A stretch of 37,450 nucleotides of DNA from Fidelibacterota bacterium (lineage in GTDB: Bacteria > Fidelibacterota > UBA2242). A model generated the notes under the pieces. That model had not been told where the DNA came from. It ran no database searches and saw only the letters and a list, made by a program, of their open reading frames with translations. A program made the translations under genes and the position numbers. Within the stretch, counting starts at the first letter, position 1; each line of letters begins with the position of its first letter. The DNA is taken from the NCBI GenBank assembly GCA_049975265.1, contig JBNGDF010000024.1, positions 1 to 37,450 of the forward strand. Reading direction: 5' to 3'. Below, in pieces: positions 2,040-25,449 of this stretch.

Positions 2040-2073
2040 CAAAAATTCTCCTCACTATTGATTAATTAAATCT

Positions 2074-3747
2074 TTAAACCAGCGTTCCGAAATATTCAGT
2101 GGTTTTTTGCTTATATTTGACATGATCGGGAATATAATCGGGCAGCACGATGGGAGCGATTTTTTTTCCGGGAATACCCAATGCCTTTACCTCTTTGCTG
2201 TAATCATAGACATGCTGCATCGTCAATTTGCCGAATTGGACGCCCCGCTTTACCCGTTCCGCAGCCCAATAGCCACTCCGCCGACCAAATACGATCAGGT
2301 CCAGCTGCGAATTGCCCATCAGGCGGTTGCGTCCGTGGATACCGCCAGCGGCTTCACCAGCAACATATAATCCGGGAATTCGGGTTTCACCCTTATCGTC
2401 AATTTCGATTCCGCCATTCTGATAATGCAAAGTCGGGTAGACCAGCATGGGATATTTCACGATATCAATATCGAAGCGCTTATATTGCCGCAGCATCGCT
2501 GGTAAATATTTCTGGATTGCGCCGGCACCATTGATCAAATCAATCAGCGGCGTATCCAGCCAGATGCCTACTTTGCCGGTCGGCGTTTTGACCCCCTTGC
2601 CCCGCTCCGTACATTCACGGATGAATGCTGCCGCCTCGATATCCCGGGGTTCCAGCGGATAGACAAAGAGTTCACCGTCATAATTCACTGGTTGAGCACC
2701 CATAGACCGGATTTTTTCCGTACAGAGAAATCCCAGAATCTGTTCCGGGAAAACTGCTCCTGTAGGATGGTACTGAACCGAATCCATGAACAACAGATTG
2801 GCGCCGGCGCGATAAGCAATTACCAAACCATCTGCCGTTGCACCGTAATGATTCGTCGTCTCAAAGTCGCGGATATGCAGTCGCCCAAACCCGCCGGTGG
2901 CGATGATAATTGATGCCGCCTTGATAACGATATACTGCTTGGTTTCAAGATGGTAACCAATGGCTCCGACAGCCTGCCCTTTATTATCAAGGATTAATTC
3001 GATGATTGATGTGAATTCCAGAAATTTTATCTTCGCAGGCATGTTATACACTTCATCCCGCAATACCCGGCAGATTCCGGCGCCGGTATAATCACGGGCT
3101 GAGTGCATCCGATTGCGACAGGTCCCGCCCCCCGATTTGACCATCATGGAACCGTCTTCATTTTTATCGAACATGACGCCCAGCTCTTCCAGCCATTTGA
3201 TCGCTTCGGGACCGTCGTTGACCAGTGCCTTGACCAGGTCTGGTTTATTGTCAAAATGACCGCCGCCGATTACATCGAGATAGTGCAGAACCGGCGAATC
3301 GTCTTTCTGAGTAGCCGCCTGTATCCCGCCCTGCGCCATCATGGAATTGGAATCGCCGAGTCTTAGTTTTGTCGCGATCAGAACATTACAGCCGTTTACG
3401 CCCGCTGTAATTGCCGCCGCCATACCGGCTGAACCGGCTCCAATTACCAAAACATCCGTCACATAGTCGGGATTGTCAAGGTCGAGAATTGCCGGATCAA
3501 TCCGGGAATAGGATTCCAGCAGATTTGCCACCTCGGTGGTTAGCAGTTCGCCTTTGTTTGGACCAACCCGGATTTCCCGGCGCGCATCCTTTCTGTAATC
3601 GGGATGAAAGTTATCCAGCACCTTCTGGCGCTCACTTTCACTCATCGCCGGGAAAACCTGCTTGCCCATTTTCTTCGCCAACTCCAGCCGTTTTGGTCTG
3701 GTTTGTTCAACCATTTTAATCGACTTCATCATATAATCGGGATACAT
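2074..3747 (-). CDS. Soluble fumarate reductase/succinate dehydrogenase-family flavoprotein (FrdA/TfrA-like) with N-terminal extension
   Basis: GAGSAG FAD-binding motif, AQGG, IATGG; dicarboxylate-site motifs QYHPT, TEKIR, PRD, HYQNGG and HGRNRLMGNS; AAGGAG RBS. Confidence 0.85.
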   Translation of the reverse strand: MYPDYMMKSIKMVEQTRPKRLELAKKMGKQVFPAMSESERQKVLDNFHPDYRKDARREIRVGPNKGELLTTEVANLLESYSRIDPAILDLDNPDYVTDVLVIGAGSAGMAAAITAGVNGCNVLIATKLRLGDSNSMMAQGGIQAATQKDDSPVLHYLDVIGGGHFDNKPDLVKALVNDGPEAIKWLEELGVMFDKNEDGSMMVKSGGGTCRNRMHSARDYTGAGICRVLRDEVYNMPAKIKFLEFTSIIELILDNKGQAVGAIGYHLETKQYIVIKAASIIIATGGFGRLHIRDFETTNHYGATADGLVIAYRAGANLLFMDSVQYHPTGAVFPEQILGFLCTEKIRSMGAQPVNYDGELFVYPLEPRDIEAAAFIRECTERGKGVKTPTGKVGIWLDTPLIDLINGAGAIQKYLPAMLRQYKRFDIDIVKYPMLVYPTLHYQNGGIEIDDKGETRIPGLYVAGEAAGGIHGRNRLMGNSQLDLIVFGRRSGYWAAERVKRGVQFGKLTMQHVYDYSKEVKALGIPGKKIAPIVLPDYIPDHVKYKQKTTEYFGTLV

Positions 3748-4156: not shown

Positions 4157-4190
4157 ATCTCACTACTCAATCCTCGTTACTCATAATCTA
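4157..4190. repeat. Degenerate heptamer tandem array, right arm of the inverted repeat flanking the four-helix-bundle gene
   Basis: CTCACTA CTCAATC CTCGTTA CTCATAA at 4159-4186; its reverse complement matches 3764-3793 at about 21/30 positions by hand alignment. Confidence 0.75.
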
Positions 4191-4874
4191 TTTTAACTTA
4201 ATCTCTCTTGCATAATACCGTTTGGATTGTTCCTCTCGCGGCATTTCGACAAGTTCATCCAGTTCCTTTTCGTATTTTCCATTCTCAATCTCGACAATCC
4301 GCTCTTCCAACTCCAGGCTTTTTTTATTCAGGTAACGCCCATATAGCCGCTGCGCAAGAGTTGCGGCATTGTACTGGACAATTTCAGCCGGACAGCGCAG
4401 GGCGCACAAACCACAACGAATGCAATCAAAGGAGAGGTCTGCTGCTTTGGCGATGTCGCCGCGCTTGAGTGCCTGCACATAATCCATTACCTTGATCTCC
4501 TGGGGACAGGCTTTTGTACAGGTATTGCAGGCGACACAGCGAAAAACCGTCGGAAAGAGAATCTTGATTGTATCCACGTCGGGGGTCAATTCCTTGATAT
4601 CGTAAACCGGTTTTTCCGCCGGTACAAAGGGAATCTGCGCCAGCATCATCCCATCACTAACCACCGTCTGACAGGCTAAGCCGCCCTTCAACTTATAGTC
4701 GCCCTTTTCCCGATAAACCGTGGCACAGGCGCCGCAAAAGCCCTCCCGGCAGCCAACTCCGCGCTTCATCTGAAATCCGGCGTACTCCATCGCCATAATG
4801 ATGGTCGAGCCTTCCGGTACATCATAGGCTTCACCCATGATGAATACTTTCACCATCTTCTGCTTTTCACTCAT
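4188..4874 (-). CDS. Fumarate reductase-associated iron-sulfur subunit (FrdB/TfrB N-terminal-like; [2Fe-2S] + 2x[4Fe-4S])
   Basis: CREGFCGAC...LACQT ([2Fe-2S]); CVACNTCTKACP and CIRCGLCALRCP (two full ferredoxin motifs); next to the flavoprotein. Confidence 0.82.
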   Translation of the reverse strand: MSEKQKMVKVFIMGEAYDVPEGSTIIMAMEYAGFQMKRGVGCREGFCGACATVYREKGDYKLKGGLACQTVVSDGMMLAQIPFVPAEKPVYDIKELTPDVDTIKILFPTVFRCVACNTCTKACPQEIKVMDYVQALKRGDIAKAADLSFDCIRCGLCALRCPAEIVQYNAATLAQRLYGRYLNKKSLELEERIVEIENGKYEKELDELVEMPREEQSKRYYAREIKLK

Positions 4875-5380
4875 TGATAAGCCTCCTTTAAAGCGTTCAA
4901 TCCCGATCTCATTTCGGAATCTTCGCCAGCTGTCATCTTTTTTATTTGCGCTTTAATATCAATAACTATCCGCCTCTTCTGCCTTTCGATTGCTCCGGAA
5001 AATGATTCTCCAAACGTCTGATTATCCTCAATTTCCACCGCCAGAAAATCAATCCTGTCGGGCACCATGAATCCACACTGACGGGCATATTTTAAAATAG
5101 AAAGAATATCCGTCGAGTGGATACTGAATGGTATATGCCCCTTAAAATCCGCCGCGGAGAAGCGGTGAATCGCACCAACCGGCTTCTTACCGGTGATTAT
5201 GGAATCAATGATGATCACCCGTTCATAGCCGTACATCTGATCCAGCAACCCGAATCCCGAATCCGCCGAAGCGATGACATCCCAGCCGCTGAATGCCGAC
5301 CTTAATTGCCTGGCAATGTAGACCCCGATTCCATCGTCGGTCAGCAGATTGTTGCCCAGCCCTATTATTAATACTTTCAC
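4871..5380 (-). CDS. [NiFe]-hydrogenase maturation endopeptidase (HyaD/HycI family)
   Basis: N-terminal IIGLGNNLLTDDGIG, IIIDS and SIHS motifs; GTG start overlaps the mvhD stop. Confidence 0.9.
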   Translation of the reverse strand: MKVLIIGLGNNLLTDDGIGVYIARQLRSAFSGWDVIASADSGFGLLDQMYGYERVIIIDSIITGKKPVGAIHRFSAADFKGHIPFSIHSTDILSILKYARQCGFMVPDRIDFLAVEIEDNQTFGESFSGAIERQKRRIVIDIKAQIKKMTAGEDSEMRSGLNALKEAYQ

Positions 5381-5784
5381 AACGGTGTATATTGAATCTG
5401 ACCCAATTCTCGAATTTCTTCGGTAAACTCATTCACAATTGCGGCAAAGCGTTTTCCCTCCGCCGCCGAAATCCACTCAAGACGGAGGCGTTCCTCGTTA
5501 ATATTCAGGTCAGTCAGCAGCTTCTTTAACAATTTCACCCGTTTCAGCGTCTGATAATTACCGGTCTGATAGTGACAATCGCCCGGATGGCAACCGCCGA
5601 TCAGAACTCCGTCGGCGCCGTTTCTGAAAGCATCCAGTACATGCTCCGGGTCCACCCGACTGGAACACATCAACCGGATGCCAATCACGTTCGGCTGATA
5701 ACTCAACCGGGATGTTCCCGCCAGATCCGCACCCGCCGAGGTACACCATTTACAAAAAAATGCGACTATCTTTGGTTCGAACAT
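5377..5784 (-). CDS. mvhD: F420-non-reducing hydrogenase delta subunit MvhD ([2Fe-2S])
   Basis: FCKWC...GADLAG...RLMCSSRVDP...GADGVLIGGCHPGDCHY...WISAAEG; all conserved Cys present. Confidence 0.95.
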   Translation of the reverse strand: MFEPKIVAFFCKWCTSAGADLAGTSRLSYQPNVIGIRLMCSSRVDPEHVLDAFRNGADGVLIGGCHPGDCHYQTGNYQTLKRVKLLKKLLTDLNINEERLRLEWISAAEGKRFAAIVNEFTEEIRELGQIQYTPL

Positions 5785-5793
5785 AGGTTACCC

Positions 5794-5842
5794 TTGATAT
5801 TGGAAATTGGAAATTTGAAATTAGAAACTCGCTACTCAGTAT
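5794..5842. repeat. Degenerate heptamer tandem array in the hdrA-mvhD spacer
   Basis: TTGATAT TGGAAAT TGGAAAT TTGAAAT TAGAAAC TCGCTAC TCAGTAT in unbroken 7-nt register. Confidence 0.8.
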
Positions 5843-5925
5843 AGTAGAAATCATAGAATCAAATCATTCCGTTTGACTACTAAAGGCTTTCGTTTTTGGA
5901 CCTCACTGATTTTTCTGATTACCAA

Positions 5926-7878
5926 TCACGTTGTTAAAATCGCCTGGACCATTCTATTCAATTGCTCATCTGTAAAATTACGCTGCTGCGCGGCTCCCGA
6001 CGGGCAGGCAGCCGCACAGGCACCACAGGCTTCACAGAGTACTTCGTTCACTTCGACAATCCCTTTCTCCCGGCTGATCTTACGGGCATCATAGGGACAG
6101 ACCGCCACACACAGACCGCAGCCGGAGCAGAGCTCTTCATTAACACCGGTAATGATCGGATCGTGCAACAGGTATTCGTTGGCAAACAGATTGGTGACCA
6201 TCGCCGCCGCTGCCGCCGCCTGGGCAACGGTATCGGGAATGTCCTTCGGCGCCTGGGCACAACCCGCCAGATAGATGCCGGCACTCAGCGATTCCACCGG
6301 ACGGAGCTTCGGGTGAGCTTCTGTTAAAAAGCTGTTTTGATCGATTGAAATTTTCAACAGTTTCGCCAAATCCTCGATCCCCTTCGAGGGACGAATCGCC
6401 ATTGACAGGACCACCAGATCGGCGCGAATCTCCACATTGCTGCCGCTGAGCGTGTCTATCCCACAGACAACCACCTTATCGCCATCCTGGTATAATTTTG
6501 AAACTTTCCCGCGTAAATACAATACTTTATCCTCTTCCTGAGCGCGTTGATAAAACTCCTCATATCCTTTACCCCCGGCACGTACATCCATATAAAAAAT
6601 ATACGGCTGTCCGTCAGGAACGCGGTGTTTATAGAGCATCGCATGTTTGGTCGTGTACATACAGCAAATCTTTGAACAGTAGGGAAAATGATGCTCCGGG
6701 TCCCGGGAGCCCACACATTTGATAAACACAATCTCTCTGGGAATTTTCCCGTCCGAGAGTCGGCGTACCTCTCCGCCGGTGGGACCCGATGAAGAGAGCA
6801 GCCGTTCAAAGGTCAGTCCGTCAATGACATCGGGTATTTTGCCGCTGCCGTATTCACCCATATTTATTAACGGATAAACATCGTAACCGGTGGCAACCAC
6901 GATTGCGCCGACCTCTTCTTCGATATACGAATCCGTTTCCGTAAAATTAATCGCCTCAAAAGGGCAGATCTTCTCACAGACCCGGCATTTTCCCGTTTTG
7001 AAATAGGTACAATTATCGCAATCAATGACCGGTTTATTCGGCACCGCCTGAGGAAAGGGCGTAAAAATAGCTTTACGCTTTCCCAAACCCTGATCGAATT
7101 CCGAAGCTACCTTCTGCGGACATTTCTCGATGCAAAGACCACAGCCGGTGCATTTATCCCAGTCAACATACTTTGCTTTTTGCTTTATTTTTACTTTGAA
7201 ATTGCCGACAAATCCCGAAATATCCGCCAATTCCGAATAGGTCAACAGGCGGATTTGGGGATGCTGGGCGACCTCCACCATCTTCGGTGTCAGGATACAT
7301 TGCGAGCAGTCCAGCGTCGGAAAGGTCTCGGACAGCTGCGCCATGCGTCCCCCGATAGAGGACTGTTTTTCCACCAAAATCACCTCGTAGCCACTGTTGG
7401 CAATGTTCAGCGCGGCTTGAATTCCGGCGATGCCGCCCCCGAGCACCAACGCTTTCCGAACCACCGGTACTTTAATCGGTTCCAGACTCTCGTCCAACAA
7501 AGCTTTCTCCACTACCGATTTGATGATCCTTTTCGCCTTTTCGGTTGCTACCGCCCGATCTTTATGCACCCAACTGCACTGCTCGCGGATGTTGGCAATT
7601 TCACAATTAAAGGGATTCATATCCACGGTCTGAACCGCCAGACGAAAGGTGTTTTCATGCAGGGTGGGAGAACAGGCGGCGATTACAACAGCATCCAACT
7701 TTTCCGACTTGATTTTCTTTTTCACCAGATTCTGACCCGGATCAGAGCACATGTATTTATAATCCTGAATGTAGGCAATGCCCGGATAATCACGCAGGTC
7801 TTCTACGACTTTGGCAACATCCACCGTCGCGGCTATGTTAATCCCGCAGTGGCAGACAAAGACGCCGACTCTCTTCAT
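5926..7878 (-). CDS. hdrA: Heterodisulfide reductase subunit A (canonical length, 650 aa)
   Basis: VGVFVCHCGINIA, NIREQCSWVH, GGGIAG, TFPTLDCSQC, inserted ferredoxin domain, FERL, CVGSRD, CSKICCMYTTK, EAHPKLRPV, GCAQAPKDI, C-terminal 2x[4Fe-4S]. Confidence 0.96.
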   Translation of the reverse strand: MKRVGVFVCHCGINIAATVDVAKVVEDLRDYPGIAYIQDYKYMCSDPGQNLVKKKIKSEKLDAVVIAACSPTLHENTFRLAVQTVDMNPFNCEIANIREQCSWVHKDRAVATEKAKRIIKSVVEKALLDESLEPIKVPVVRKALVLGGGIAGIQAALNIANSGYEVILVEKQSSIGGRMAQLSETFPTLDCSQCILTPKMVEVAQHPQIRLLTYSELADISGFVGNFKVKIKQKAKYVDWDKCTGCGLCIEKCPQKVASEFDQGLGKRKAIFTPFPQAVPNKPVIDCDNCTYFKTGKCRVCEKICPFEAINFTETDSYIEEEVGAIVVATGYDVYPLINMGEYGSGKIPDVIDGLTFERLLSSSGPTGGEVRRLSDGKIPREIVFIKCVGSRDPEHHFPYCSKICCMYTTKHAMLYKHRVPDGQPYIFYMDVRAGGKGYEEFYQRAQEEDKVLYLRGKVSKLYQDGDKVVVCGIDTLSGSNVEIRADLVVLSMAIRPSKGIEDLAKLLKISIDQNSFLTEAHPKLRPVESLSAGIYLAGCAQAPKDIPDTVAQAAAAAAMVTNLFANEYLLHDPIITGVNEELCSGCGLCVAVCPYDARKISREKGIVEVNEVLCEACGACAAACPSGAAQQRNFTDEQLNRMVQAILTT

Positions 7879-8765
7879 AACAGCCCTTTCCTTTTTAAGA
7901 CCAGTCGGGGGTCAATGGCGTGCAGCTGAAAATCATGGAGGTTCGGCTTCAATCCCATCAGCAGTGCCAGCAGCTGGGTAAAATAGAGCACCGGAACAGT
8001 CTGAAACGAGGCATCTGCTTTCCGAATATCCCGCTGCACCTCATCCAGATTGTAATAACAAAGCGGACAGAGTGTAACCATCAGATCGGCACCATTTTTC
8101 ACAGCAGAACCAACGATTTTCCGGGCTCGCTCCCTGACAATTTCAGGTTCGTTGACAATCTGGTAGGAACCGCAGCAGTCCGTCCTGAAGGGGAAATAGA
8201 CGTTTTCACACCCGGCATGGGCTAAAATTTCCTCCATAATCACCGGATCATCGGGCGAATCAATGGCGATTTCCCGGGGTCGAAGCAGCATGCAGCCGTA
8301 GTAGGAAGCGACTTTCAGATTGACATCTTTTTTAATAATGGCAGCCTTTAATTTATCCAGACCGATCTGCCTGATCAGTGTCAAAATATCAATTACCTCG
8401 ACTTCATCACCATAAAATTGGGTATTCTCAAGGTCCATAAACTGATGAATCGTATCCCGTTTTTCCGCATCATTTTTAATGAATTCAATCGCTCGTTTCA
8501 GGGTATTGAAGCACATGGTGCAGAGCGCCAGCAGCTGCCGCCTGCCGCTCTCTTTGGCTTTCACCAACGTCCTGACGGGAGCGACTTGCTGCATCAGATT
8601 GTCCTGGCTCTGGGAAAAACAGACGCCGCAGCAGTACCAGTCTTCCAGCTCCGTCACGGATACACCCAGGCGTTCCAGGACCGCCAGTGCCGAGGTCTCA
8701 AAATTTTTAGCATTGGATTTCAAAGTACATCCCGGGTAGTAGGATAGTTCCATCGGCTTCTCCAT
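7875..8765 (-). CDS. hdrB: Heterodisulfide reductase subunit B (two CCG domains)
   Basis: YPGC...CCG...CTMC and YGC...CCG...CPLC; all 10 CCG-domain cysteines present. Confidence 0.93.
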   Translation of the reverse strand: MEKPMELSYYPGCTLKSNAKNFETSALAVLERLGVSVTELEDWYCCGVCFSQSQDNLMQQVAPVRTLVKAKESGRRQLLALCTMCFNTLKRAIEFIKNDAEKRDTIHQFMDLENTQFYGDEVEVIDILTLIRQIGLDKLKAAIIKKDVNLKVASYYGCMLLRPREIAIDSPDDPVIMEEILAHAGCENVYFPFRTDCCGSYQIVNEPEIVRERARKIVGSAVKNGADLMVTLCPLCYYNLDEVQRDIRKADASFQTVPVLYFTQLLALLMGLKPNLHDFQLHAIDPRLVLKRKGLL

Positions 8766-8768
8766 GAC

Positions 8769-9182
8769 CTAAAGAATCGTTTTTCTAAAATTACCGATCA
8801 GTGCAATCTGCGGCAGTTTTTTCCTTAATTTTGTATCAATTTTACAAAGATTGCCATGCTCGAAATCGCTGCGCAGGACAATCTGGCGCAAGCCCTCCAT
8901 CACTTTCGCAATATCCACGCCGCGGGGACATTTTACTGTGCAGGCGATGCAGGCGGCGCAAATCCAGGGCGTTTCCGACGTTATTAGTTCGTCTATAAAC
9001 CCCAGCTGCACTTTCCGAATTACCTGATGCGGCGGAATATCCATGAACTCTACCGCAGGGCAAGCCGCCGAACAGTTGCCGCACTGGAAACAGGCATAGA
9101 CATTGACACCGGAAATATTCCGTAGTTGGTCAATCTGATCACAGCTGACTCGGTGTGCACTGATCGTTTGATTTTTACTCAT
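8769..9182 (-). CDS. hdrC: Heterodisulfide reductase subunit C
   Basis: CFQCGNCSAACP and WICAACIACTVKCPRG; directly upstream of hdrB. Confidence 0.92.
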   Translation of the reverse strand: MSKNQTISAHRVSCDQIDQLRNISGVNVYACFQCGNCSAACPAVEFMDIPPHQVIRKVQLGFIDELITSETPWICAACIACTVKCPRGVDIAKVMEGLRQIVLRSDFEHGNLCKIDTKLRKKLPQIALIGNFRKTIL

Positions 9183-9185: not shown

Positions 9186-10649
9186 TCAATCCCTCACTAA
9201 CGTTTGAATTACTTCCCGTTGGGCATTGTGAATGGTGACAATCAGGGGCATTTGTCCCGGCAGGGAGTGCGTCGCGCAGGCAAAACAGGGATCGTACGCC
9301 CGAAAAGCCATCTCGACCATATTCAGGATACCGTCATCTACCTTGCCTTTTTTTATCAGCCTGCGGGCGGCGCGCTCGATGGACATACAGATTGCCGCCG
9401 AGTTGTTTGTCGTCGCAACGATCAGATTCACGTCGGTTACACGACCCTTTGAATCGGTTTTGTAGTGGTGATAGAGTGTACCCCGGGGCGCCTCGACAAC
9501 GCCGATACCTTCGGAAGGTATTTCGCTGGGAATCGTCCTGATATCCGGTGACAGGATTTCCGGATCATTTGCCAATTCTTTGAACCGTTCGGCGGCGTAC
9601 AGTACCTCCACCAGACGCGCCCAGTGATAGGCTAACGTATGGTGCGCCGGTTTCGTCCCCAGAGTTGCAAACATTTTCTCAAATTCAGCCTGGGCAAGTG
9701 GCGTCGCCATCCCATCGGCAGCGTTCAATCTCGCCAGTGGCGCTACCCGATAAACACCGCTCTTCTTTCCATCGCTAAATCCCTGCCAGCCGATCTTTTT
9801 CAGATAGGTAAATTTCACATAGCTCCAGGACTCCACGCGCTCCTCGATATGCCTGAGATAATCATGGGGCTTAAATTTTACAAATTCTTCACCGGTCGGC
9901 GTTACGACCCGGATATTGCCGTCATAAAGATTGACGCAATTCTTTTCATCCACGAGTCCCATATAATATGTTTCATGGCGATAGATGTCACCCATAATCA
10001 AATCCAGATACTCCCGGTTTGCCAAGACGATGTCGCTAAAGGCTTGCAGTGCCAGTTGTGCGAAAGCGATCATTTCATCAGCCAGCTGCCGGTACTCTTC
10101 GGCGTCTTCCGGCTTGACCCCTTTGGAAACGCCGCCCGGCAGGTTGCAGACCGGATGGATCACCCGCCCGCCCTGTTTTTCAATCACTGCCCGGACTTTG
10201 CGACGGATAGCGATGACCTGACCGCCGATTTCCATGCCGACTTTTCCCAGCACTCCCAGAATATTGCGCTGCTCTTTCGGCGCCTTCGGTCCGACGATGA
10301 AATCCGGTCCGCCTAGGTAGAAAAAATGCAGCACGTGATCTTCAAATATAAAAGCCGAATTGATCAGTTCGCGGATTTTTTTCGCCGCCGGCGGCGGCTC
10401 CACCCGGTAGAGATCGTCGAGGGCTTTGCCGGATGCCATGTGATGTGTCGTCGGACAGACGCCGCAGATCCGGGGCGTAATGCGCGCCAGCTCTTCTGCC
10501 ATACGACCGCGGCAAAATTCCTCGAAACCGCGCAGCTCCGGAACCTGAAAATAAGCCTGCTGCACATCACCTTCCGCATCGAGAAAAATATCAATCTTAC
10601 CGTGCCCTTCCAGACGAGTTATCGGATCAATTTTTATTCGCGTGCCCAT
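9186..10649 (-). CDS. mvhA: [NiFe]-hydrogenase large subunit, group 3c (MvhA)
   Basis: TRLEGHG, L1 RICGVC, EAPRGTL, L2 RAYDPCFACATH plus a cleavable C-terminal extension; hdr/mvhD context. Confidence 0.93.
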   Translation of the reverse strand: MGTRIKIDPITRLEGHGKIDIFLDAEGDVQQAYFQVPELRGFEEFCRGRMAEELARITPRICGVCPTTHHMASGKALDDLYRVEPPPAAKKIRELINSAFIFEDHVLHFFYLGGPDFIVGPKAPKEQRNILGVLGKVGMEIGGQVIAIRRKVRAVIEKQGGRVIHPVCNLPGGVSKGVKPEDAEEYRQLADEMIAFAQLALQAFSDIVLANREYLDLIMGDIYRHETYYMGLVDEKNCVNLYDGNIRVVTPTGEEFVKFKPHDYLRHIEERVESWSYVKFTYLKKIGWQGFSDGKKSGVYRVAPLARLNAADGMATPLAQAEFEKMFATLGTKPAHHTLAYHWARLVEVLYAAERFKELANDPEILSPDIRTIPSEIPSEGIGVVEAPRGTLYHHYKTDSKGRVTDVNLIVATTNNSAAICMSIERAARRLIKKGKVDDGILNMVEMAFRAYDPCFACATHSLPGQMPLIVTIHNAQREVIQTLVRD

Positions 10650-10663
10650 AAATTTATCCTTAT

Positions 10664-11632
10664 TTAAGACCGATCATGAAATTTGACTTTCAGCGATGAT
10701 GCCAGACTGAACATGTAAAATAAACCGGCGGGATCAATAACTGACTCCGCAAAGGCTTCGATTTTCCGCTCATCTTCACTCTCGAATTGCGAACTGAATC
10801 CCGCTAAAAATTTGGCACCCTGATCGTGAACGGCTTTCGTCGGACCGAAACAGCCGCGGCAGGGCATATTGGCATTGATACAGCGCTCGCCGCAGCCCGA
10901 ACGGGTCGCCGGTCCCAGACAGACGACACCCTCCGCCAGAAAACATTTATCAGCGGGAATGTTCGCCAGCGAAATGCGCTTAATATCCATGATTTTCAGC
11001 TTATCAGGTTTGGAGTCATTGCGCAGGCAACTGTCACAGAGCGATTTATCCGGCGCAAGGATAGTACCCTTTGCCGGTAATTTACCTGACAGTATCGCCG
11101 TAATCGCTTCCATAATCAGATCCGGTGGCGGTGCACATCCCGGCACATAGTAATCCACCTCAATCACCTGATCCAAAGCCCGCACCTCTGAATGCATCTC
11201 CGGCAATTCCAGCTCGCCCTCCTCGATGTGCGTAACTGCTTCCGGAAAAACATTATCCGGATTGTTGACAGACGGAACATTCCGGTAAACCGTCTCAAAC
11301 AGCTGCCGGAGGGAAGATAAATTCGCCAAGCCGGGGATTCCGCCCAGATGGGCACAGCTACCGAAAGCAACAATCAGACCGGATTTACGACGCAACAGTC
11401 TGACCCACTCCTCCTGCTCCGCTGTCCTCACTGCACCATTAATAAAAGCAACCGCTATCGAGCCGTCAGCCATGGTTTCAATATCACTCCTTTTGAAATC
11501 CATCGCCACCGGCCAGAGCACGATATCCACGGCGTCTACCACTTTCAGAATGTCTTCCGCCAGATCAACCACCGCCTCTTCGCAGCCCCCGCAGGAGGCG
11601 CACCAGTAAAAGGCAACTTGCGGTTTATCCAT
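10664..11632 (-). CDS. mvhG: [NiFe]-hydrogenase small subunit (MvhG)
   Basis: CASCGGC, FGSCA..GGIPGL, VPGCAP, CDSC, CLGPATRSGC and PCRGCFGP. Confidence 0.93.
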   Translation of the reverse strand: MDKPQVAFYWCASCGGCEEAVVDLAEDILKVVDAVDIVLWPVAMDFKRSDIETMADGSIAVAFINGAVRTAEQEEWVRLLRRKSGLIVAFGSCAHLGGIPGLANLSSLRQLFETVYRNVPSVNNPDNVFPEAVTHIEEGELELPEMHSEVRALDQVIEVDYYVPGCAPPPDLIMEAITAILSGKLPAKGTILAPDKSLCDSCLRNDSKPDKLKIMDIKRISLANIPADKCFLAEGVVCLGPATRSGCGERCINANMPCRGCFGPTKAVHDQGAKFLAGFSSQFESEDERKIEAFAESVIDPAGLFYMFSLASSLKVKFHDRS

Positions 11633-11656: not shown

Positions 11657-12541
11657 TTAATGGCATTCCTCAATCTTTTTACCTATTCCGATTTTTCCAT
11701 TCACTTCCCAGGTGTGCTTTTCAAGCCCGTAGGCAACAGTCATGAGTTGTGTAAAATAAACAACCGGGATATTTCTAAAATCCGGATACTTATGCTTGAT
11801 ATCATTTTGCCGATTATCGAGGTTGAAAGCGCACAGCGGGCAGGATGTGATCACAATATCGGCACCACTCCTTTGGGCATCCGTCAGGATGTCGTACCCC
11901 AGATTTACCACGGTATCTTTATTGTTAAGGGTCAAATAACTGCCGCAACACTTGTGCCTGCAGCGCCACTCAACCGCCTCGGCGCCAAGTGAACGGATAA
12001 AATCCTCCATAATTGTCGGGGTTTCATGATGATCGATTCCGATATCTTTCGGACGCAGCAACATACAGCCGTAATAGCCGGCGACTTTGAGATTTTTTAA
12101 CGGATTTACAACCTTACTCTGAATTTTGTCAAATCCGATCTCCCTTAACAGACTGAGAAAATGGATCAGCTCCACCGAACCGTCATAATCAATCTCGTTT
12201 GACATAAAATCATTGACAACTTTGAGATCATCCGGACTGTTTTTCATACGATTGTTGGATCGTTTAAGAGTATTATAACACATAGAACATAACGTCAACA
12301 GGCGTTTATTATCCTTTACAATGCCCTCTTGATTCATCTCTAAAACCCGTACAAAATTGCGAATTGGCGCCACATGGTGAATGATATCGTCCGTAGCCAA
12401 CGAGGAGACGACGCCGCAGCAGTTCCAGCGGGGGATTTCCACAAACTCAATACTTAGCTGTTTCGCAGCAGCGATAGCCGATTCTTCAAATTTCTTGGCA
12501 AAGGATTTCAGGGTACAGCCGGGAAAATAGGGGATTTTCAT
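11657..12541 (-). CDS. hdrB: Heterodisulfide reductase subunit B, second copy
   Basis: FPGC...CCG...CSMC and YGC...CCG...CPLC; clear paralogue of 7875-8765. Confidence 0.93.
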   Translation of the reverse strand: MKIPYFPGCTLKSFAKKFEESAIAAAKQLSIEFVEIPRWNCCGVVSSLATDDIIHHVAPIRNFVRVLEMNQEGIVKDNKRLLTLCSMCYNTLKRSNNRMKNSPDDLKVVNDFMSNEIDYDGSVELIHFLSLLREIGFDKIQSKVVNPLKNLKVAGYYGCMLLRPKDIGIDHHETPTIMEDFIRSLGAEAVEWRCRHKCCGSYLTLNNKDTVVNLGYDILTDAQRSGADIVITSCPLCAFNLDNRQNDIKHKYPDFRNIPVVYFTQLMTVAYGLEKHTWEVNGKIGIGKKIEECH

Positions 12542-12556: not shown

Positions 12557-12961
12557 TCAGGATACCAGCTTCCGGTTGGCGGCGATAATCGCAATGGGTG
12601 GTAATTCCCGCAATTCATCGGCAGAAATGCTGTTCAGGTCTACGCGGTCAATGGATTGCCGTAAATTAACGAGTCGGAGGGCTTCCGCCACTTTGGAGAC
12701 ATCCAGACCGCGCGGGCAGCGGACGGTGCAGGTATTGCAGGTCGCACATAACCACATTGTTTTCGATTCCAGCACATCCTCCTGACCTAGCAGAACTTTC
12801 CGCATTAATTGCGACGGCATAATGTCCATATCGTCAACAAAGGGACAACCGCCGGAACAGGTTCCGCACTGATCGCACAGCGTAATCACCTCCCCGCTCA
12901 ATTCCGCAATCAGTTCGAAGAAATCCACAGACTTATCATCTAGAGTAATTTTTTCGGACAT
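12557..12961 (-). CDS. hdrC: Heterodisulfide reductase subunit C, second copy
   Basis: CDQCGTCSGGCP and WLCATCNTCTVRCPRG. Confidence 0.92.
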   Translation of the reverse strand: MSEKITLDDKSVDFFELIAELSGEVITLCDQCGTCSGGCPFVDDMDIMPSQLMRKVLLGQEDVLESKTMWLCATCNTCTVRCPRGLDVSKVAEALRLVNLRQSIDRVDLNSISADELRELPPIAIIAANRKLVS

Positions 12962-15340
12962 CTATCCACGCTCCTGTTTGCCATCACCGGGATTCATCAT
13001 GACGTAATCGTAATCGGCGATTTCTTTGACCAGCTGATTGATCCGCTCAATAAAAGCGGTCATCATCCCCGACGCAAGTTCAGAAAACACAATTTGTTTG
13101 CCCGTTATTCCCATATCCTGAAGTTGCCGGGCGGCGGATTGAATGCTATCCCGGATACACTGCCGACTCCAGGGAAACCGGGAACTCTTTTCCGGACAAT
13201 CGCCGATCAATACACCATCGGCGCCCTGCTGAATTGTGTACAAAATCAATTGCGGAGTGATCCTCGCCGCACTGGGAATTCGGATGATCCGAACGTCAGC
13301 CGAATAACTCATTTTGCGGATACCCACCGCATCCGCCAGACGATAAGTGCAGGCATCATCGGCAAAAACGATAATTCGTTGCTGAGATACCCTTTTTCGT
13401 GACAGAGCCCCCTGCACCGCCGCATACAGCTGCGCATTGGTATAGCCGTGCAAATCGAGGGCTTCCGTCGGGCAGCTGGCGATACAAGCCCCACAGCCAA
13501 CACAGAGAGCCGCGATGACCTCAGCCCGGTTTTCCGTATTGATCGTAATGGCATTTTTCGGGCATGCCGAAAGGCATTTTCCGCATCCATCGCAGAGTTC
13601 ACTATGCACGAATGCCAGAATCGGATCAACTTCAAACTCTTTTTGAGCCAGCGCACCGATTACCCTCGAAGCGGCGGCACTGGCTTGCGCAACTGTATCG
13701 GGGATATCCTTCGGACCCTGCGCCGTTCCCGCTAAAAAGACACCTTCCACCAGCGTATCCACCGGTCTGAATTTCGGATGCGCTTCCTGAAAAAATCCAT
13801 CGGAACTTCTAGCCAGCTTTAGCAGATCAGCGATTTTCTCCGACGCTCTACTCAGCTGAATACCAGTCGATAAAACGATTAAATCAAACTCCGCTTCAAT
13901 AATCTTCCGGGAAAGAGTATCCTCAACGTGTATCACCAGCTTCTTATTCACCGGATTTTCACTCAACTCCGCAACCTTCCCGCGGATAAATTTGATACCC
14001 ATCGTCTGGGCTTTTTTATAGTATTCTTCATAGCCTTTCCCGAAAGCGCGAATATCGGTATAAAAAATATAGATATCGGTTTTCGGGCGCGCCTGCTTTA
14101 AAAGCGAGGCTAACTTAATGGCATACATACAGCAGACCCGGGAACAGTATTCCCGTCCGGTCTGTTCGTCCCGGGAACCGACACACTGAATAAACCCTAC
14201 CCGTTTACCCACCTCCCGGGGTGGCGGGTTTTCGGTAATATGGTCGACAATCCGCTCCATCTCAAGCCCGGTCACCACATTCCTATATTTACCGTAACCA
14301 AAAACCGGCTTCTCCCGCGGATCAATAATATCATACCCTGTGGCGACAATAATAGTATCAACGGTAAAATGAATGTCTTTTGGCTGCTGGGAAAAATCGA
14401 TCGCCTCCTGCGGACACACCTCTGCACATCGGTGACAGTCGCCGCCATTGAAAAACAGGCAGGCGTCCGAATCAATCAGATATTTATATGGAATTGCCAG
14501 CGCCGCAGGAATATAAATCGCCTTGCGGTTCAGAATTCCCTGCTCCCACTGATTCGGCACTGTCACGGGGCAAGCCACCGTGCACTTTTCACAGCCCAGA
14601 CACTGATCCATATCGATGCTGTCTTTAATATACCGGGGATGCTGCCTGGCATGAATCTCAAAATGCAGGCGATGTCCGGCAACATTTTCCACGGTCGTAC
14701 TGGTCAAAAGGCGGATACCGGGATGTTCCTGAACCTCAGCCATTTTGGGTGAAATAATACAGGCGGCACAGTCTTCAGTGGGAAAGGTCTTGGTAAGCCG
14801 CGCCATATTGCCGCCGATACTGGAATCCTTCTCAATCAGGGTTACCTCCTTACCGGCTGCCGCCAGGTCCAGTGAGGCTTGAATTCCGGCGACGCCGCCG
14901 CCAATTACCAGCACCCGGTTTCCCATGGCGATTTTCTTTTTATCCAATGGGTAATTATGTCGCACTTTCGCCAGTGAGGCAAGCAGCAGATCGATCGCCT
15001 TTTCAGTCGCAACGTCAGGATCATTGCGATGAGTCCAGGAACAGTGCTCCCGAAAATTTGCCATCTCCAGAACATAGGGATTCAGACCCGCTTTTTCGAG
15101 TGTCGCCTTAAAGGTCTTTTCATGAAACTGCGGAGAGCAGGAGGCAATTACGACCCGGTCCAGCCGGTGCTCCTGAACATCCTCAATGATCAATTTCTGA
15201 CCGGCGCCGGAGCACATGTTGGAGTGCTCTCTCAGTACAGCAATATTATCCTGATCCCGGATTGCCTCGGTTACCTTCTGAAGGTCTACGACCTTCGAAA
15301 TATTTCCGCCGCACTGACATAAATAGACACCAATTTTCAT
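12962..15340 (-). CDS. hdrA: HdrA fused to a degenerate C-terminal MvhD-like domain
   Basis: IGVYLCQCGGNIS, GGGVAG, TFPTEDCAAC, CVGSRD, CSRVCCMYAIK, EAHPKFRPV; the last ~145 aa align with MvhD (IIVFADDACTY...GADGVLIGDC). Confidence 0.92.
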   Translation of the reverse strand: MKIGVYLCQCGGNISKVVDLQKVTEAIRDQDNIAVLREHSNMCSGAGQKLIIEDVQEHRLDRVVIASCSPQFHEKTFKATLEKAGLNPYVLEMANFREHCSWTHRNDPDVATEKAIDLLLASLAKVRHNYPLDKKKIAMGNRVLVIGGGVAGIQASLDLAAAGKEVTLIEKDSSIGGNMARLTKTFPTEDCAACIISPKMAEVQEHPGIRLLTSTTVENVAGHRLHFEIHARQHPRYIKDSIDMDQCLGCEKCTVACPVTVPNQWEQGILNRKAIYIPAALAIPYKYLIDSDACLFFNGGDCHRCAEVCPQEAIDFSQQPKDIHFTVDTIIVATGYDIIDPREKPVFGYGKYRNVVTGLEMERIVDHITENPPPREVGKRVGFIQCVGSRDEQTGREYCSRVCCMYAIKLASLLKQARPKTDIYIFYTDIRAFGKGYEEYYKKAQTMGIKFIRGKVAELSENPVNKKLVIHVEDTLSRKIIEAEFDLIVLSTGIQLSRASEKIADLLKLARSSDGFFQEAHPKFRPVDTLVEGVFLAGTAQGPKDIPDTVAQASAAASRVIGALAQKEFEVDPILAFVHSELCDGCGKCLSACPKNAITINTENRAEVIAALCVGCGACIASCPTEALDLHGYTNAQLYAAVQGALSRKRVSQQRIIVFADDACTYRLADAVGIRKMSYSADVRIIRIPSAARITPQLILYTIQQGADGVLIGDCPEKSSRFPWSRQCIRDSIQSAARQLQDMGITGKQIVFSELASGMMTAFIERINQLVKEIADYDYVMMNPGDGKQERG

Positions 15341-15372
15341 AACCTGACTCTCCCTCAGAACCTAACGATAGC

Positions 15373-15400
15373 CTCTCACGCTGCTTCTCCAGCGAGAGAG
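15373..15400. other. Intergenic stem-loop between tusA and hdrA-mvhD*
   Basis: CTCTC-A-CGCTG / loop CTTCTC / CAGCG-A-GAGAG: two 5-bp helices with one mismatch and no U-tract. Confidence 0.55.
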
Positions 15401-16796: not shown

Positions 16797-17357
16797 TCAT
16801 TGATCGAGGGAATATTTTTCCACCCCCAGTTTATAAACATCGTTACCCCGTACGTCATTAGCGACAAATACCGGAAAATTCACAACCTGCAGTTCCCGAA
16901 TCGCCTCCGCTCCCAAATCTTCATAGGCAATGATCCGGGCGGATTGAACCGCCTGAGCCGTGACCACCGCAGCCCCACCAATAGCCGCCAGATAGACGGC
17001 TCTGTTTTTAACCATCGAATCGACGACAGCCTGACTGCGTGGTCCTTTACCGATCATTGCTTTTAAACCGGCATCCATCAGTGCCGGAGCATAGGGGTCC
17101 ATGCGGTAACTGGTAGTAGGACCCGCCGAGCCGATGGGTTTCCCCGGTCTGGCAGGAGAGGGACCGACATAATAAATCACTGCTCCCACCGGATCAAAGG
17201 GCAGCTCCTTCCCCGCTTGTAATAGCTCCACCAGCCGTTTATGCGCCGCATCCCGGGCTGTGTAAACAATCCCACTCAGTAACACTTTATCACCAACATT
17301 CAACTGTTCCAGCATTTCCGACGTCAACGGTGTCTGTAGTTGTATCTCCTTTGCCAT
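16797..17357 (-). CDS. Class I Fe-S fumarate hydratase, beta subunit
   Basis: GDKVLLSG..YTARDAAHKR, YYVGPSP, GPTTSYRMD and MIGKG; start taken at ATG 17357 (MAKEIQ, GAGAGG RBS) because the track's extra 88 aa overlap the alpha gene. Confidence 0.9.
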   Translation of the reverse strand: MAKEIQLQTPLTSEMLEQLNVGDKVLLSGIVYTARDAAHKRLVELLQAGKELPFDPVGAVIYYVGPSPARPGKPIGSAGPTTSYRMDPYAPALMDAGLKAMIGKGPRSQAVVDSMVKNRAVYLAAIGGAAVVTAQAVQSARIIAYEDLGAEAIRELQVVNFPVFVANDVRGNDVYKLGVEKYSLDQ

Positions 17358-17368
17358 TTTCAACCTCT

Positions 17369-18217
17369 CTATTCTATTACCGCAGTCTCGTGACGATGAA
17401 CATGACAGTCCACATTGACCGCTACCGGCATAGAGGCAATGTGACAGGGCATGGCAAGAATCTGAACCGCAAGGGCAGTAGTCCGACCACCCAATCCCTG
17501 CGGACCGATTCCCAGCCGATTGATCCGTTCCAATATTTCTTCCTCCACTTGCGCCCATTTCGGATCGGGATGTTTCTCCGTCAGAGGGCGCAGCAGCGCC
17601 TTCTTCGCCAGCAGCGCACATCGCTCAAAACTGCCGCCGATGCCGACCCCCACCACCACCGGTGGACAGGGATTGCCGCCGGAACGCTTAATCCGGTCCA
17701 CAACAAAATCCTTCACACCCTCAATGCCATCCGCCGCCTTCATCATCTTCACTTCGCTCATATTCTCCGCTCCGCCGCCCTTTGGTACCACAGTGATCTT
17801 CAATGTTTCACCGGGTACAAGGTCGGTATAGATCAGCGCCGGAGTGTTATCCCTGGTGTTTTTTCGTTCAATCACCGGATCGTCCACCATCGATTTCCGT
17901 AAAAAGCCGTCCTGATACCCCTGCCGGACACCTTCATTGATTGCCTCATAAAAATCACCACCCACCAGATGAATATCCTGCCCCAATTCGACGAATACCA
18001 CCGCCACTCCTGTGTCCTGGCAGAGAGGCATCTGCTCCTGCGCCGCCATTTTGTGATTCTCCAGCATCAGCGCCAGAATATCCTTTGCCGTCGGCGATTC
18101 TTCCTTTTCCATAAAATACCGGATTCGATCAACAACATCCGGACTGGCGTAATAGTTGGCATCAATACACAACTTTTTCACGATCGGTATAACCTGTGAA
18201 ACCTGAATCTCCTTCAA
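17369..18217 (-). CDS. Class I Fe-S fumarate hydratase, alpha subunit
   Basis: CQDTG, KGGGAEN, NPCPP, GPQGLGG, PCHIAS and CHVHR; probable TTG start at 18217 after GGAGGG (track start 18232). Confidence 0.9.
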   Translation of the reverse strand: MKEIQVSQVIPIVKKLCIDANYYASPDVVDRIRYFMEKEESPTAKDILALMLENHKMAAQEQMPLCQDTGVAVVFVELGQDIHLVGGDFYEAINEGVRQGYQDGFLRKSMVDDPVIERKNTRDNTPALIYTDLVPGETLKITVVPKGGGAENMSEVKMMKAADGIEGVKDFVVDRIKRSGGNPCPPVVVGVGIGGSFERCALLAKKALLRPLTEKHPDPKWAQVEEEILERINRLGIGPQGLGGRTTALAVQILAMPCHIASMPVAVNVDCHVHRHETAVIE

Positions 18218-18232
18218 TGATTCACCCTCCAA

Positions 18233-18626
18233 ATAATTATCGTTGAAAATAAAAAATGGCTTAAAAAATAATTCAAGGAATCCTTCGTATTTTAAATGGA
18301 AAACACCATTCAGAAACTGGGATTAAGGAATTTCCTCATTTCAATGGAATACTGCGCCAAAAAACCAACTGTTCCCACTACCCTCGAAAATTTTAACGCA
18401 ACCCTGTTAATTCATTTTTCGCGAAATTTCTCGTTAGTCCAATTAATTCCCTTATTGCTAAAATAGAATCTTTTGTAAAAAATCCAAAAGGAAAATTTGA
18501 TCTTTTTAATTTTTACCGGTGCAAAAAATTATTTATTTAACGTGCTTACAATTTCTTCCGACGATCCGGTCGCTACATCACCAACTCCCGGGCTGCTCAT
18601 ATATTCGGCATTTCCATTCCTGACCC
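18233..18626 (-). promoter_or_regulatory. AT-rich upstream control region of the 17.6 kb operon
   Basis: ~390 bp non-coding, A/T-tract-rich gap, the largest in the window; individual promoter elements not pinned down. Confidence 0.55.
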
Positions 18627-19499
18627 CTATTGCAACGACGCCACCAGAGTCCGACCTATTTCTGCCGGATTCGAAGTCACCCTGATGCCGGCTTTTTCCA
18701 AAGTCTCCATTTTTTCCCTTGCCGTTCCCTGACCGCCGGCGATGATAGCACCGGCGTGCCCCATCCGACGCCCCGGAGGCGCGGTTATACCCGCAATAAA
18801 TGCAACCACCGGCTTGGTAAAATGCTTCTGGATATAAGCAGCCGCATCCTCCTCGGCGCTTCCGCCAATCTCGCCGATCAGCACTACCGCCTCCGTCTGG
18901 TCATCATCCTGAAATAACGGTAACAGATCGGTAAAGATACTTCCCACAATCGGATCCCCGCCGATGCCGATACAGGTGGATTGACCCAGTCCGAGTTGCG
19001 TGATCTGATGGACCGCTTCATAGGTGAGAGTTCCGCTGCGGGAAATAACACCCACCGAACCCCTCTGATGAATAAACCCCGGCATAATGCCGATTTTCGA
19101 CCTCCCCGGCGCGATGATTCCCGGACAATTGGGTCCAATCAATCGCGATTTCGACCGTTCCAAAACATACTTGACCTTGATCATGTCCTGCGTCGGAATT
19201 CCCTCGGATATACAGACAATCAATTCCAACCCTGCGTCAATGGACTCGAGAATGGCATCGGCAGCAAACCGGGGCGGGACGAAAATCACACTGGCATTCG
19301 CGCCGGTTTCCGCTACCGCCTCCCGGACAAAGTCAAAAATCGGCAGACCGTGTTCCGATTTTCCCCCTCCCTTTCCGGGCGTCACACCGCTCACGACCTG
19401 CGTCCCGTATTCCAGCATCCGAGCCGTGTGAAATGCCCCCTCTCTGCCGGTAATTCCCTGCACCATCACCCGGGTGTTTTCATTGATCAAAATACTCAT
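18627..19499 (-). CDS. sucD: Succinate--CoA ligase subunit alpha
   Basis: [30 protein letters not shown] and phospho-His motif RMGHAGA. Confidence 0.97.
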
Positions 19500-20668
19500 T
19501 ACTTCACTCCCCTGTTTGCTGCCTTGACAACCAATTTCGCCGCCCGGTCAAAGGAGTCGGCGACGGTAAAATTCAGGGCGGAATCTTCCAAAATTCTGCG
19601 CGCCTCTTCGGCATTGGTACCCTCAAGCCGGATTACGACGGGCACAGAGACCACCAGGCTTTGTAACGCTGTAACGATTCCCCGGGCAACCCGGTCACAG
19701 CGGACAATCCCGCCAAAAATATTGATCAGTACGGCATTCACATTTTCATCGCTCATTAAAATTTCGAAACCGTTGGCGACCGTATCCGGCGAAGCCACCC
19801 CGCCGACATCCAGAAAATTAGCCGGTTCGCCGCCATGCAACTTAATGATATCCATCGTCGCCATCGCCAGACCGGCACCGTTGACCATGCAACCGACATT
19901 TCCGCCCAAACGGACATAATTCAGGTGATTTTCCGACGCTTCCAGCTCCGCCGGATCTTCTTCACTGAAATCCCGTAATTCCAGAACCTGCGGATGCCGA
20001 AACAGGGCGTTGTCATCAAAATTGAGTTTTGCATCCAGCGCCATCAGCGCACCCGAGCGGGTTACAACCAGAGGATTGACCTCAACCAGCGATGCATCAC
20101 TGCGCCGAAAAACATTGTACAGGGACTGTAAAAACACCACCCCCTTTTTCCTCTGTTCGCCCTCCAGCCGCAATGCCGACACAAGCCGTTGATACTGATA
20201 CGCCTGCAACCCGAAACCGGGCAGCGCATATTCTTTGGCGATCTTTTCCGGCATCTCCGCCGCCACCTCTTCGATCTCCATACCACCTTCCGTGGAAACC
20301 ATCATCACCGGACGGGCTCTATTTCTATCAATCACTACTCCCGCATACAACTCCCGCTCAATATCCACCGCTTCTTCGATGAACAGCCGGTTAACGATTT
20401 TACCTTCCGGACCGGTCTGTCTGGTAATCAGCGGCTTGCCCAGCATATTTTCAATAATCTGTCGGGCTTCGGACTCTGAACGGGCAATTTTTACACCCCC
20501 GCCCTTACCGCGCCCACCGGCATGTATCTGGGCTTTGACAACACAGGGATAGCCCAGCAGACCGGCGGCATTCAGCGCCGCTTCCATCGAAAAAGCCGGA
20601 ATCCCCCGCGGTACCGGCACATGAAATCTGTTCAGGATATCCTTCGCCTGATACTCATGAATTTTCAT
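19499..20668 (-). CDS. sucC: Succinate--CoA ligase (ADP-forming) subunit beta
   Basis: [56 protein letters not shown] and [10 protein letters not shown]. Confidence 0.97.
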
Positions 20669-25443: not shown

Positions 25444-25449
25444 GATCAC

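Follow-up and report, generated by a model that had tools for sequence, protein, structure and literature searches.

A conserved, cluster-less MvhD-like domain on a likely ferredoxin-fed HdrA encoded with a soluble fumarate reductase in Fidelibacterota

In solved complexes of the heterodisulfide reductase (Hdr) family, the [2Fe-2S] cluster of the adaptor MvhD is the entry to the flavin adenine dinucleotide (FAD) of the partner HdrA protomer; cluster HA4 leads to HdrC and HdrB, cluster HA3 shuttles low-potential electrons to ferredoxin-type clusters, and the way in which the MvhD cluster reduces the HdrA flavin has been called a critical gap (PMC13580544). Input modules bind via the termini of HdrA and a helix of VhuD (PMC13518236). 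HdrA-MvhD fusions have been classified as carrying a [2Fe-2S] protein (PMC12054007), and ferredoxin-to-heterodisulfide transfer by HdrA2B2C2 of Methanosarcina acetivorans, a route without hydrogenase, has been shown biochemically (PMC5296606). Fumarate reductases linked to Hdr have been proposed from genomes or transcripts as HdrABC-FlxABCD-KorABCD-TfrAB in tubeworm symbionts (PMC6315080), as the 'succinate operon' of P. thermosuccinogenes (PMC7282089) and as the Mvh-Hdr-TFR cluster of Ca. Celaenobacter (PMC8542988). Here, we describe HdrA*, one of two HdrA proteins encoded in a 37,450-nucleotide window of an anaerobic Fidelibacterota bacterium (assembly GCA_049975265.1, contig JBNGDF010000024.1, positions 1 to 37,450), whose fused C-terminal MvhD-like domain has kept its predicted fold and lost three of its four cluster ligands. 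This cluster-less port is real, conserved and functionally meaningful, and marks a widespread enzyme variant that is likely fed by ferredoxin and not by H2.

A maintained MvhD fold without its cluster ligands

The tail of HdrA* (residues 656-775) matches FlpD (PF02662) at 86.7 bits against a cut-off of 22.3, and the only other FlpD match in the whole genome is the free MvhD of the same window (5784-5377; 183.9 bits). A gap-free pairwise alignment of the two places C11 of free MvhD at D661 (GAT), C14 at C664, C40 at S690 (AGT), C65 at C715 and C70 at S720 (TCC), and the five cysteines align with C13, C16, C42, C67 and C72 of PDB 5ODC chain D. Cys16 of MvhD has been called an additional cysteine, outside the cluster (PMC13580544). 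Its counterpart in HdrA* is C664. The other four MvhD cysteines we take to be the [2Fe-2S] ligands, in part from the wording of that source on Cys16, and because C664 thus lies outside the cluster, the tail has lost three of four ligands and retains only C715. The original prediction had reported three of five conserved cysteines replaced within an intact GADGVLIG scaffold and reading frame; alignment and open frame agree, and the motifs FADDAC, RIPSAAR, GADGVLIG, GDCPEKSSRF and SRQC were verified. His68 and Asp71 of MvhD, which contact the cysteine-pair ligand of HdrA (PMC13580544), are replaced by P716 and S719.

The predicted model of the domain alone aligned to MvhD structures with template modelling (TM) scores of 0.69-0.70 (5ODC_D: 0.70, root-mean-square deviation 2.7); comparison with FlpD domains in the Atlas gave TM scores of 0.83-0.88, and the AlphaFold model of whole HdrA* had a mean predicted local distance difference test score of 88. 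The tail is a maintained MvhD fold without its cluster ligands, which would be unable to hold a normal [2Fe-2S] cluster and presumably carries none. Judged by alignment, all other HdrA cofactor motifs are retained: the four HA3 cysteines, HA4, the C191/C194 pair, K409 and E362 (the equivalent of E356, mapped on 5ODC_A) are present in all 91 full-length relatives, and the ferredoxin-domain cysteines in 84-91 of them. A domain scan found no NAD(P)H-binding insert in this HdrA*. The protein is ~44% identical to its paralogue HdrA1, and each has its own hdrC and hdrB here. A GPTGG loop, which follows E356/R357 in HdrA1 and methanogen HdrA, is missing at residues 363-380 (~14200-14260) throughout the HdrA* lineage, unfused sisters included.

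A search with the tail returned 18 proteins, every one degenerate; to avoid selecting on the trait, we added a search with the HdrA core only (residues 130-580), which is blind to the tail, and took the best 120 of 7957 matches. Among these, 95 had a degenerate tail, 17 had none and eight had an intact one, the last forming a separate, distant class of 1260-1365 residues with 42-47% core identity. Source names among the best 120 included Marinimicrobia, Cloacimonadota, WOR-3, Aerophobetes, Bacteroidota and Delongbacteria. Ligand loss was common to all 97 fused relatives, none of which retained more than one of the four ligands. D661 was invariant in the 97 degenerate tails, and the second and fourth ligand positions were never Cys; histidine was never found at the His68 position, and aspartate was found once at that of Asp71. 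C664 was kept in 45 and C715 in 52, distributed as 45 tails with both, 45 with neither (and with none of the five cysteines) and seven with one only; read by eye, the core FastTree suggests that joint loss was apparently repeated several times. Cys728 of the SRQC motif, originally proposed as an alternative ligand, is private to this HdrA*, with no cysteine in that column in any of the 97 relatives, and we abandon that role for it. Residues 718-724 form a new, moderately conserved motif across the tails, in which the helix matching the input-docking helix of VhuD is among the least conserved parts.

Among pairs from seven genomes, the ratio of non-synonymous to synonymous substitution rates (dN/dS) of the domain was 0.08-0.17 where dS was finite, synonymous sites being mostly saturated; dN of the tail was about twice that of the HdrA core, and the domain had no stops or frameshifts in the matched genomes. 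The tail is under purifying selection. Strain-specific decay, which the original prediction would have read from close orthologues keeping all cysteines, is ruled out by the loss in 97/97 relatives, dN/dS far below 1 and the open frame; no fused relative of that kind was found among the 97. With the ligand loss shared throughout, and a normal cluster predicted to be absent, the further claim that HdrA* probably takes no electrons from MvhAG holds up, and hydrogenase input to HdrA* has very probably been lost.

Relatives and operon layouts

A profile search of 1.84 billion representatives yielded 150 listed matches: 112 kept their ligands intact, 25 had fewer than four, and coverage was incomplete for the other 13. 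The matches listed included a 791-residue Methanobacterium HdrA (P0147) that passes NF041891 (1441 bits, cut-off 1300) and bears, on a Cys-free tail, the Asp and Pro-Ser replacements of HdrA*, another cluster-less tail from Asgard-type archaea, and a 1229-residue HdrA from a Caldisericota cluster (P0130) that joins the cluster-less tail of the HdrA* clade to a GltD-type NAD(P)H insert. A tree of tails was restricted to 24 clearly degenerate ones, without the short rows and those showing scattered single losses; these, with the tail of P0147 grouping in the HdrA* clade, fell on one side of a branch from 45 intact domains (FastTree), and separated from 109 intact tails with the ligand columns and adjacent loop removed (FastTree, Shimodaira-Hasegawa support 0.96), both being trees of short sequences selected by a degenerate profile. 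The topology suggests a single ancient origin of the bacterial and archaeal cluster-less tails. For the HdrA core, one origin with later tail loss or several fusions are both possible: in a midpoint-rooted FastTree, row L152_12168, labelled unfused, is a contig-truncated HdrA*, and six other unfused HdrAs nest inside the degenerate-tail clade. Unfused close paralogues of HdrA*, with an intact mvhD-mvhGA, stand directly before hdrA* in L152 (G008:C9), L070, L053, L054 and L088, and nest within that clade (FastTree) as if the H2 port had been regained.

A metagenome scan recovered 49 loci (one truncated) with a single pattern that contains D661 and is biased at that position, the unbiased count of tail state being that of the core-only search. 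In 23 of the 28 informative loci, defined by at least 2.3 kb downstream, frdB or frdA follows hdrA*, usually in the order hdrA*-hdrC-hdrB-frdB-frdA, so that conservation of the ligand loss in orthologous fusions and its linkage to frdBA, which the original prediction had proposed to test, are both supported. Of the 21 loci that span at least 10 kb, five had MvhA, and no Flx-like gene was found in any of the 49; frequent neighbours were sucCD, fumAB, malic enzyme and 2-oxoacid:ferredoxin oxidoreductase, including the 2-oxoglutarate type. Two loci (L049:3490-7968; L052:10-4458) encode a GltD-inserted (HdrL-type) HdrA of 1.5 thousand residues directly upstream of hdrA*-hdrC-hdrB, and L049 has no frd genes within 10 kb downstream.

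Searching 401 genomes of the phylum, which are metagenome-assembled and include non-independent kin, with the tail profile gave 16 matches, 12 degenerate fusions and four intact MvhD. The FrdB type of this locus occurs in 25 phylum genomes, of which 11 overlap with the 12 carrying degenerate fusions and 14 have no degenerate-domain match. Around the same FrdBA we found mvhGA with hdrC1B1A1 and mvhD and no hdrA* (G005, G009, G012, G013, G015), hdrA*C2B2 with no hydrogenase genes (G001, G014, G025, G032, G064, G106), both HdrA types (G000, G003, G006, G008, G154), and an intact adaptor, paired with Flx in G052 and with an unfused HdrA sister in G026. The Flx arrangement (L145, G052:C59), hdrCB-kor-hdrA-mvhD-flx-frdBA, is a cluster of the tubeworm-symbiont type in this phylum with the same FrdBA family. 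HdrA* was the sole HdrA found in 5 of 12 genomes tested (G001, G014, G064, G085, G106; 87-96% complete), MvhA was not found in 4 of the 12, and the degenerate domain was the only FlpD match in 4 of 5 genomes tested; HdrA1 operons without hdrA* occur in the near-complete G009 (98%) and G012 (97%). FrdBA is thus the constant output, with an input module that varies between Mvh, Flx, none and both HdrA types, and ligand loss goes with having no module docked on MvhD. With a constant FrdBA and modular input, therefore, neither a heterodimer of HdrA and HdrA* nor a port remodelled to dock FrdB is needed.

The genes of the window are listed in Table 1. The minus-strand run comprises sucCD, fumAB, a TPR gene, a dsrE-like gene, tusA, hdrA*, hdrC2, hdrB2, mvhG and mvhA, and continues on the same strand with hdrC1, hdrB1, hdrA1, mvhD, hycI, frdB, a bAvd-like gene, frdA and malic enzyme. 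The operon was delimited by the spacing of its genes, because a promoter and terminator scan gave counts no higher than shuffles (24 vs 25.5 and 11 vs 20.4). TusA (71 residues, PF01206, 66 bits) holds the same position in L034, L035, L045, L047 and L037, and the TusA and DsrE-like products are possible thiol or sulfur carriers for HdrB. The bAvd/23S-IVP four-helix-bundle gene between frdB and frdA (3803-4156, minus strand) is also there in G005, G006 and G007, and missing in other relatives.

Table 1. Features of the hdrA* locus, in window coordinates
Feature	Position	Strand	Description
hdrA*	12962..15340	-	792-residue HdrA; HA3, HA4, inserted and C-terminal ferredoxin cysteines, C191/C194 pair, E362 and K409 kept
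Cluster-less MvhD-like (FlpD) domain of HdrA*	13016..13375	-	Residues 656-775
Ligand-column residues of the domain	D661 13360-13358; C664 13351-13349; S690 13273-13271; C715 13198-13196; S720 13183-13181	-	
hdrC2	12557..12961	-	2x[4Fe-4S]
hdrB2	11657..12541	-	All ten CCG cysteines conserved in 40/40 orthologues
mvhG and mvhA	9186..11632	-	Group 3c-type hydrogenase; accessory block missing from many hdrA* operons
hdrC1, hdrB1, hdrA1, intact mvhD (5784-5377), maturation protease	4871..9182	-	H2-fed paralogous set
frdB-like	4188..4874	-	[2Fe-2S] plus 2x[4Fe-4S], without CCG domain
frdA-like flavoprotein	2074..3747	-	Catalytic residues kept; Asn at covalent-FAD His position (25/25)
tusA and dsrE-like gene	15637-15422; 16073-15657	-	Upstream of hdrA*; candidate thiol carriers; closest loci only
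sucCD and fumAB	16797..20668	-	Pathway context
Malic enzyme	585..2042	-	Pathway context

Electron route and its alternatives

The fumarate-site residues H327, E344, R347, R368, H441 and R475 of FrdA are kept in every covering orthologue (23-24 of 25), and the covalent-FAD histidine position is Asn in all 25. Without the covalent-FAD histidine, mutants favour fumarate reduction and disfavour succinate oxidation. In sets of five genomes tested, an Sdh cytochrome anchor was found in 0/5, methylmalonyl-CoA mutase and Rnf/Nqr-family genes in 5/5, a DsrC-family gene in 3/5 and an FrhB-type F420 subunit in 1/5. Autotrophy by the reductive tricarboxylic acid cycle was rejected as a general role, with ATP citrate lyase in only 1 of 12 genomes. 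A reductive succinate/propionate branch is the simplest fit. This genome also has Kor and a membrane hydrogenase cluster. The latter (L155, G000:C20 ~12200-20450) is a membrane-bound group-4-like hydrogenase with antiporter-like subunits, preceded by FlxA/FlxB-like NAD-binding genes, and another region (G000:C8 ~25100-33200) holds pyridine-nucleotide oxidoreductase-like, DsrC-family and DsrE-like genes and then an Nqr/Rnf-like cluster, the gene names at the hydrogenase cluster being judged from sequence.

With the entry cluster of HdrA* gone and the two other arms intact, the most economical wiring joins those arms, with ferredoxin in and disulfide or FrdB out. On this reading the tail would serve as a structural cap that is predicted to bind no cluster, and HdrA*C2B2 would dispense with hydrogenase input and likely supply the soluble fumarate reductase encoded next to it with electrons from reduced ferredoxin; these would be taken up at the ferredoxin-type clusters and HA3, pass over the FAD and exit by HA4, HdrC and HdrB to FrdB/FrdA, either directly or by a thiol/disulfide carrier, probably in the direction of fumarate reduction. 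In this genome, the same FrdBA would alternatively be served by the co-encoded MvhAGD-HdrA1B1C1, which would bifurcate and draw on H2. In several genomes hdrA* is independent of both mvhAGD and a second HdrA. Taken whole, with its putative donor and predicted HdrC/HdrB-to-FrdB route, we judge this reading just as easily right as wrong. Several points weigh against it. Ferredoxin spent on fumarate wastes energy in an Rnf-bearing cell, and the invariance of the bifurcation residues and Cys pair is left unexplained. Five of the 28 informative loci have the degenerate-domain HdrA without frdBA, so that fumarate is not a universal sink, and the genomes in which no other HdrA or MvhD was found are metagenome-assembled and 87-96% complete. 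The name of NF041891, 'ferredoxin:CoB-CoM heterodisulfide reductase', is annotation only, the role of HdrA1B1C1 is said to need validation in one review (PMC6019823), and direction is not readable from sequence for quinol-type enzymes according to another (PMC13147460).

Those invariant residues, and the energy balance, are better explained if bifurcation was kept and MvhD bypassed, with a thiol carrier (TusA, a DsrC-like or a lipoyl protein) acting via C191/C194 or HdrB, or with NAD(P)H acting directly; fumarate would be the high-potential sink and ferredoxin would be reduced. E362, K409, HA3 and C191/C194 are indeed present in 91/91 relatives, though their MvhD partners have been lost (His68 in all 97 tails, Asp71 in all but one), P0130 joins an NAD(P)H insert to a cluster-less tail, HdrA2 of M. 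acetivorans takes F420H2 directly (PMC5296606), genes for 2-oxoglutarate:ferredoxin oxidoreductase are frequent neighbours, and thiol-carrier candidates are at hand in the tusA and dsrE upstream here and the DsrC-family gene of 3/5 genomes. However, tusA was detected upstream in just five loci, all closely related, an NAD(P)H-binding insert is missing from this HdrA*, and no input subunit is consistently encoded, with Flx-like matches in 0/49 metagenome loci and an FrhB-type subunit in only 1/5 genomes, so that we consider such a bypass rather unlikely. Its broadest form, in which HdrA* would represent an ancient bacterial and archaeal class of HdrA that bifurcates without the MvhD cluster, its flavin being reduced by a thiol carrier in a single two-electron step via the invariant C191/C194 pair and the electrons being split between fumarate and ferredoxin, we regard as unlikely. 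A passive HdrA* within an asymmetric dimer, its flavin fed by the arm of a partner, be it HdrA1 together with MvhAGD or an HdrL-type HdrA that binds NAD(P)H, would suit the finding that the FAD reduced by the MvhD cluster is the one in the partner protomer (PMC13580544), the unfused paralogue and mvhD-mvhGA before hdrA* in L053, L054, L070/G008 and L088, with one hdrCB set where the locus is long enough, and the GltD-type HdrA upstream in L049 and L052. Yet HdrA* is the sole HdrA found in G001, G014, G064, G085 and G106, each HdrA here has its own hdrC and hdrB, the two HdrA proteins are only ~44% identical, and HdrA1 operons do without hdrA* in G009 and G012; this makes the dimer distinctly unlikely and weakens the obligate form of the heterodimer originally suggested, whereas a facultative one may still occur where two hdrA share a single hdrCB.

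Running the system in reverse, as confurcation in which succinate oxidation, pulled by co-oxidation of ferredoxin, reduces a disulfide, would provide a quinone-free succinate step for propionate or amino-acid oxidation. Methylmalonyl-CoA mutase in 5/5 genomes, the missing Sdh anchor in 5/5, ATP citrate lyase in only 1/12, and Kor with the membrane hydrogenase cluster in this genome would accommodate it; the lack of the covalent-FAD histidine in 25/25 FrdA orthologues speaks against succinate oxidation, and the cultured analogue P. thermosuccinogenes produces succinate (PMC7282089), making reversal very improbable. We assign only a slight probability to a remodelled port at which the [2Fe-2S] domain of FrdB would replace the lost cluster: the frdBA linkage (23/28 loci) and the motif at residues 718-724 are as expected, but the same FrdB occurs without the degenerate domain in 14/25 genomes, the port there being taken by Mvh or Flx with an intact MvhD, five loci with the degenerate domain lack frdBA, and related tails sit on archaeal HdrA. 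The [2Fe-2S] cluster of Sdh and Frd, moreover, faces the FrdA flavin. The helix matching the VhuD docking helix (PMC13518236) is also among the least conserved parts of the tail. An equally slight probability goes to a metal or redox group bound by unusual ligands (D661, C664, S690, C715), or to neutral decay; the mostly joint fate of C664 and C715 could reflect a disulfide or small site, the Asp at 661 never varies and dN of the domain is about twice that of the core, but no such site can be essential when 45/97 relatives keep none of the five cysteines, and the domain shows neither stop nor frameshift in matched genomes, with dN/dS far below 1.

Significance and comparison with known systems

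Relatives of HdrA* are annotated in databases as HdrA2 or 'hydrogenase iron-sulfur subunit', names from which bifurcation driven by H2 or F420 may wrongly be read into Marinimicrobia, Cloacimonadota, WOR-3 and other groups. The cluster-less and intact classes can be told apart at a single residue, where Asp stands in place of the first ligand. A lineage without the cluster and His68/Asp71, but with the Cys pair, HA3 and Lys409, makes the question of how the HdrA flavin is reduced testable, and Methanobacterium is a cultured genus that carries such a tail. Bifurcation from a thiol carrier, if true, would give electrons a new kind of entry to Hdr-type bifurcation and offer a natural knock-out for studying the same question. 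The locus also suggests that poorly known anaerobes possess a soluble fumarate reductase of modular build, which can be fed by H2 or NADH or lack a dedicated input. Hdr-linked fumarate reductases are already proposed in print; a full-text literature search, whose coverage mostly left subscription papers outside, found no description of a cluster-less fused MvhD.

The tail of HdrA* resembles the MvhD/VhuD/FlxD/ElpC adaptor family (PF02662; 5ODC_D, 8RVU_F, 7BKB_F) in Pfam match, predicted fold and scaffold residues, and in its place behind the C-terminal ferredoxin domain of HdrA; it differs in being fused, in lacking three of four ligands and His68/Asp71, and in its poorly conserved docking helix. 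The rest of the protein is like a bifurcating-type HdrA, with HA3, HA4, two ferredoxin domains, the Cys pair and the E356/K409 equivalents. Its domain order is that of HdrA2 in M. acetivorans HdrA2B2C2, a type Ia HdrA-MvhD fusion (PMC5296606, PMC12054007), whose model NF040770 gives the best NCBIfam score of HdrA* (891.5) without the cut-off of 1100 being reached; in contrast, HdrA2 uses F420H2, and its MvhD domain is reported to bear a [2Fe-2S] motif. Closer in the tail is the archaeal ferredoxin:CoB-CoM HdrA (Methanobacterium, NF041891), of ~790 residues, whose MvhD tail is likewise cluster-less and shares the Asp and Pro-Ser replacements, whereas HdrA* is bacterial, linked to frdBA and below cut-offs (NF041891 698/1300; NF041778 689/1400). 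In an indirect comparison with the model only, the tail of Methanosarcina HdrA1 (NF041778) scored 25.5 bits with the degenerate domain against 10.9 with intact MvhD, which hints at a cluster-less tail there too.

On the output side, FrdA has the thiol:fumarate reductase subunit TfrA of methanogens as its best NCBIfam match (309.6 bits, below the cut-off of 718), and shares with TfrAB a soluble form, the fumarate-site His, Glu and Arg residues and a CCG protein encoded nearby, although FrdB lacks the fused CCG domains of TfrB. The overall arrangement is nearest to the Flx- and Mvh-Hdr-linked fumarate reductases, in which the genes for HdrABC likewise accompany those of an anchor-less fumarate reductase and of the succinate branch; those systems combine an intact adaptor with input from NADH or H2. 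HdrA* has neither of these, in contrast to its paralogue HdrA1 in this window, which has both.

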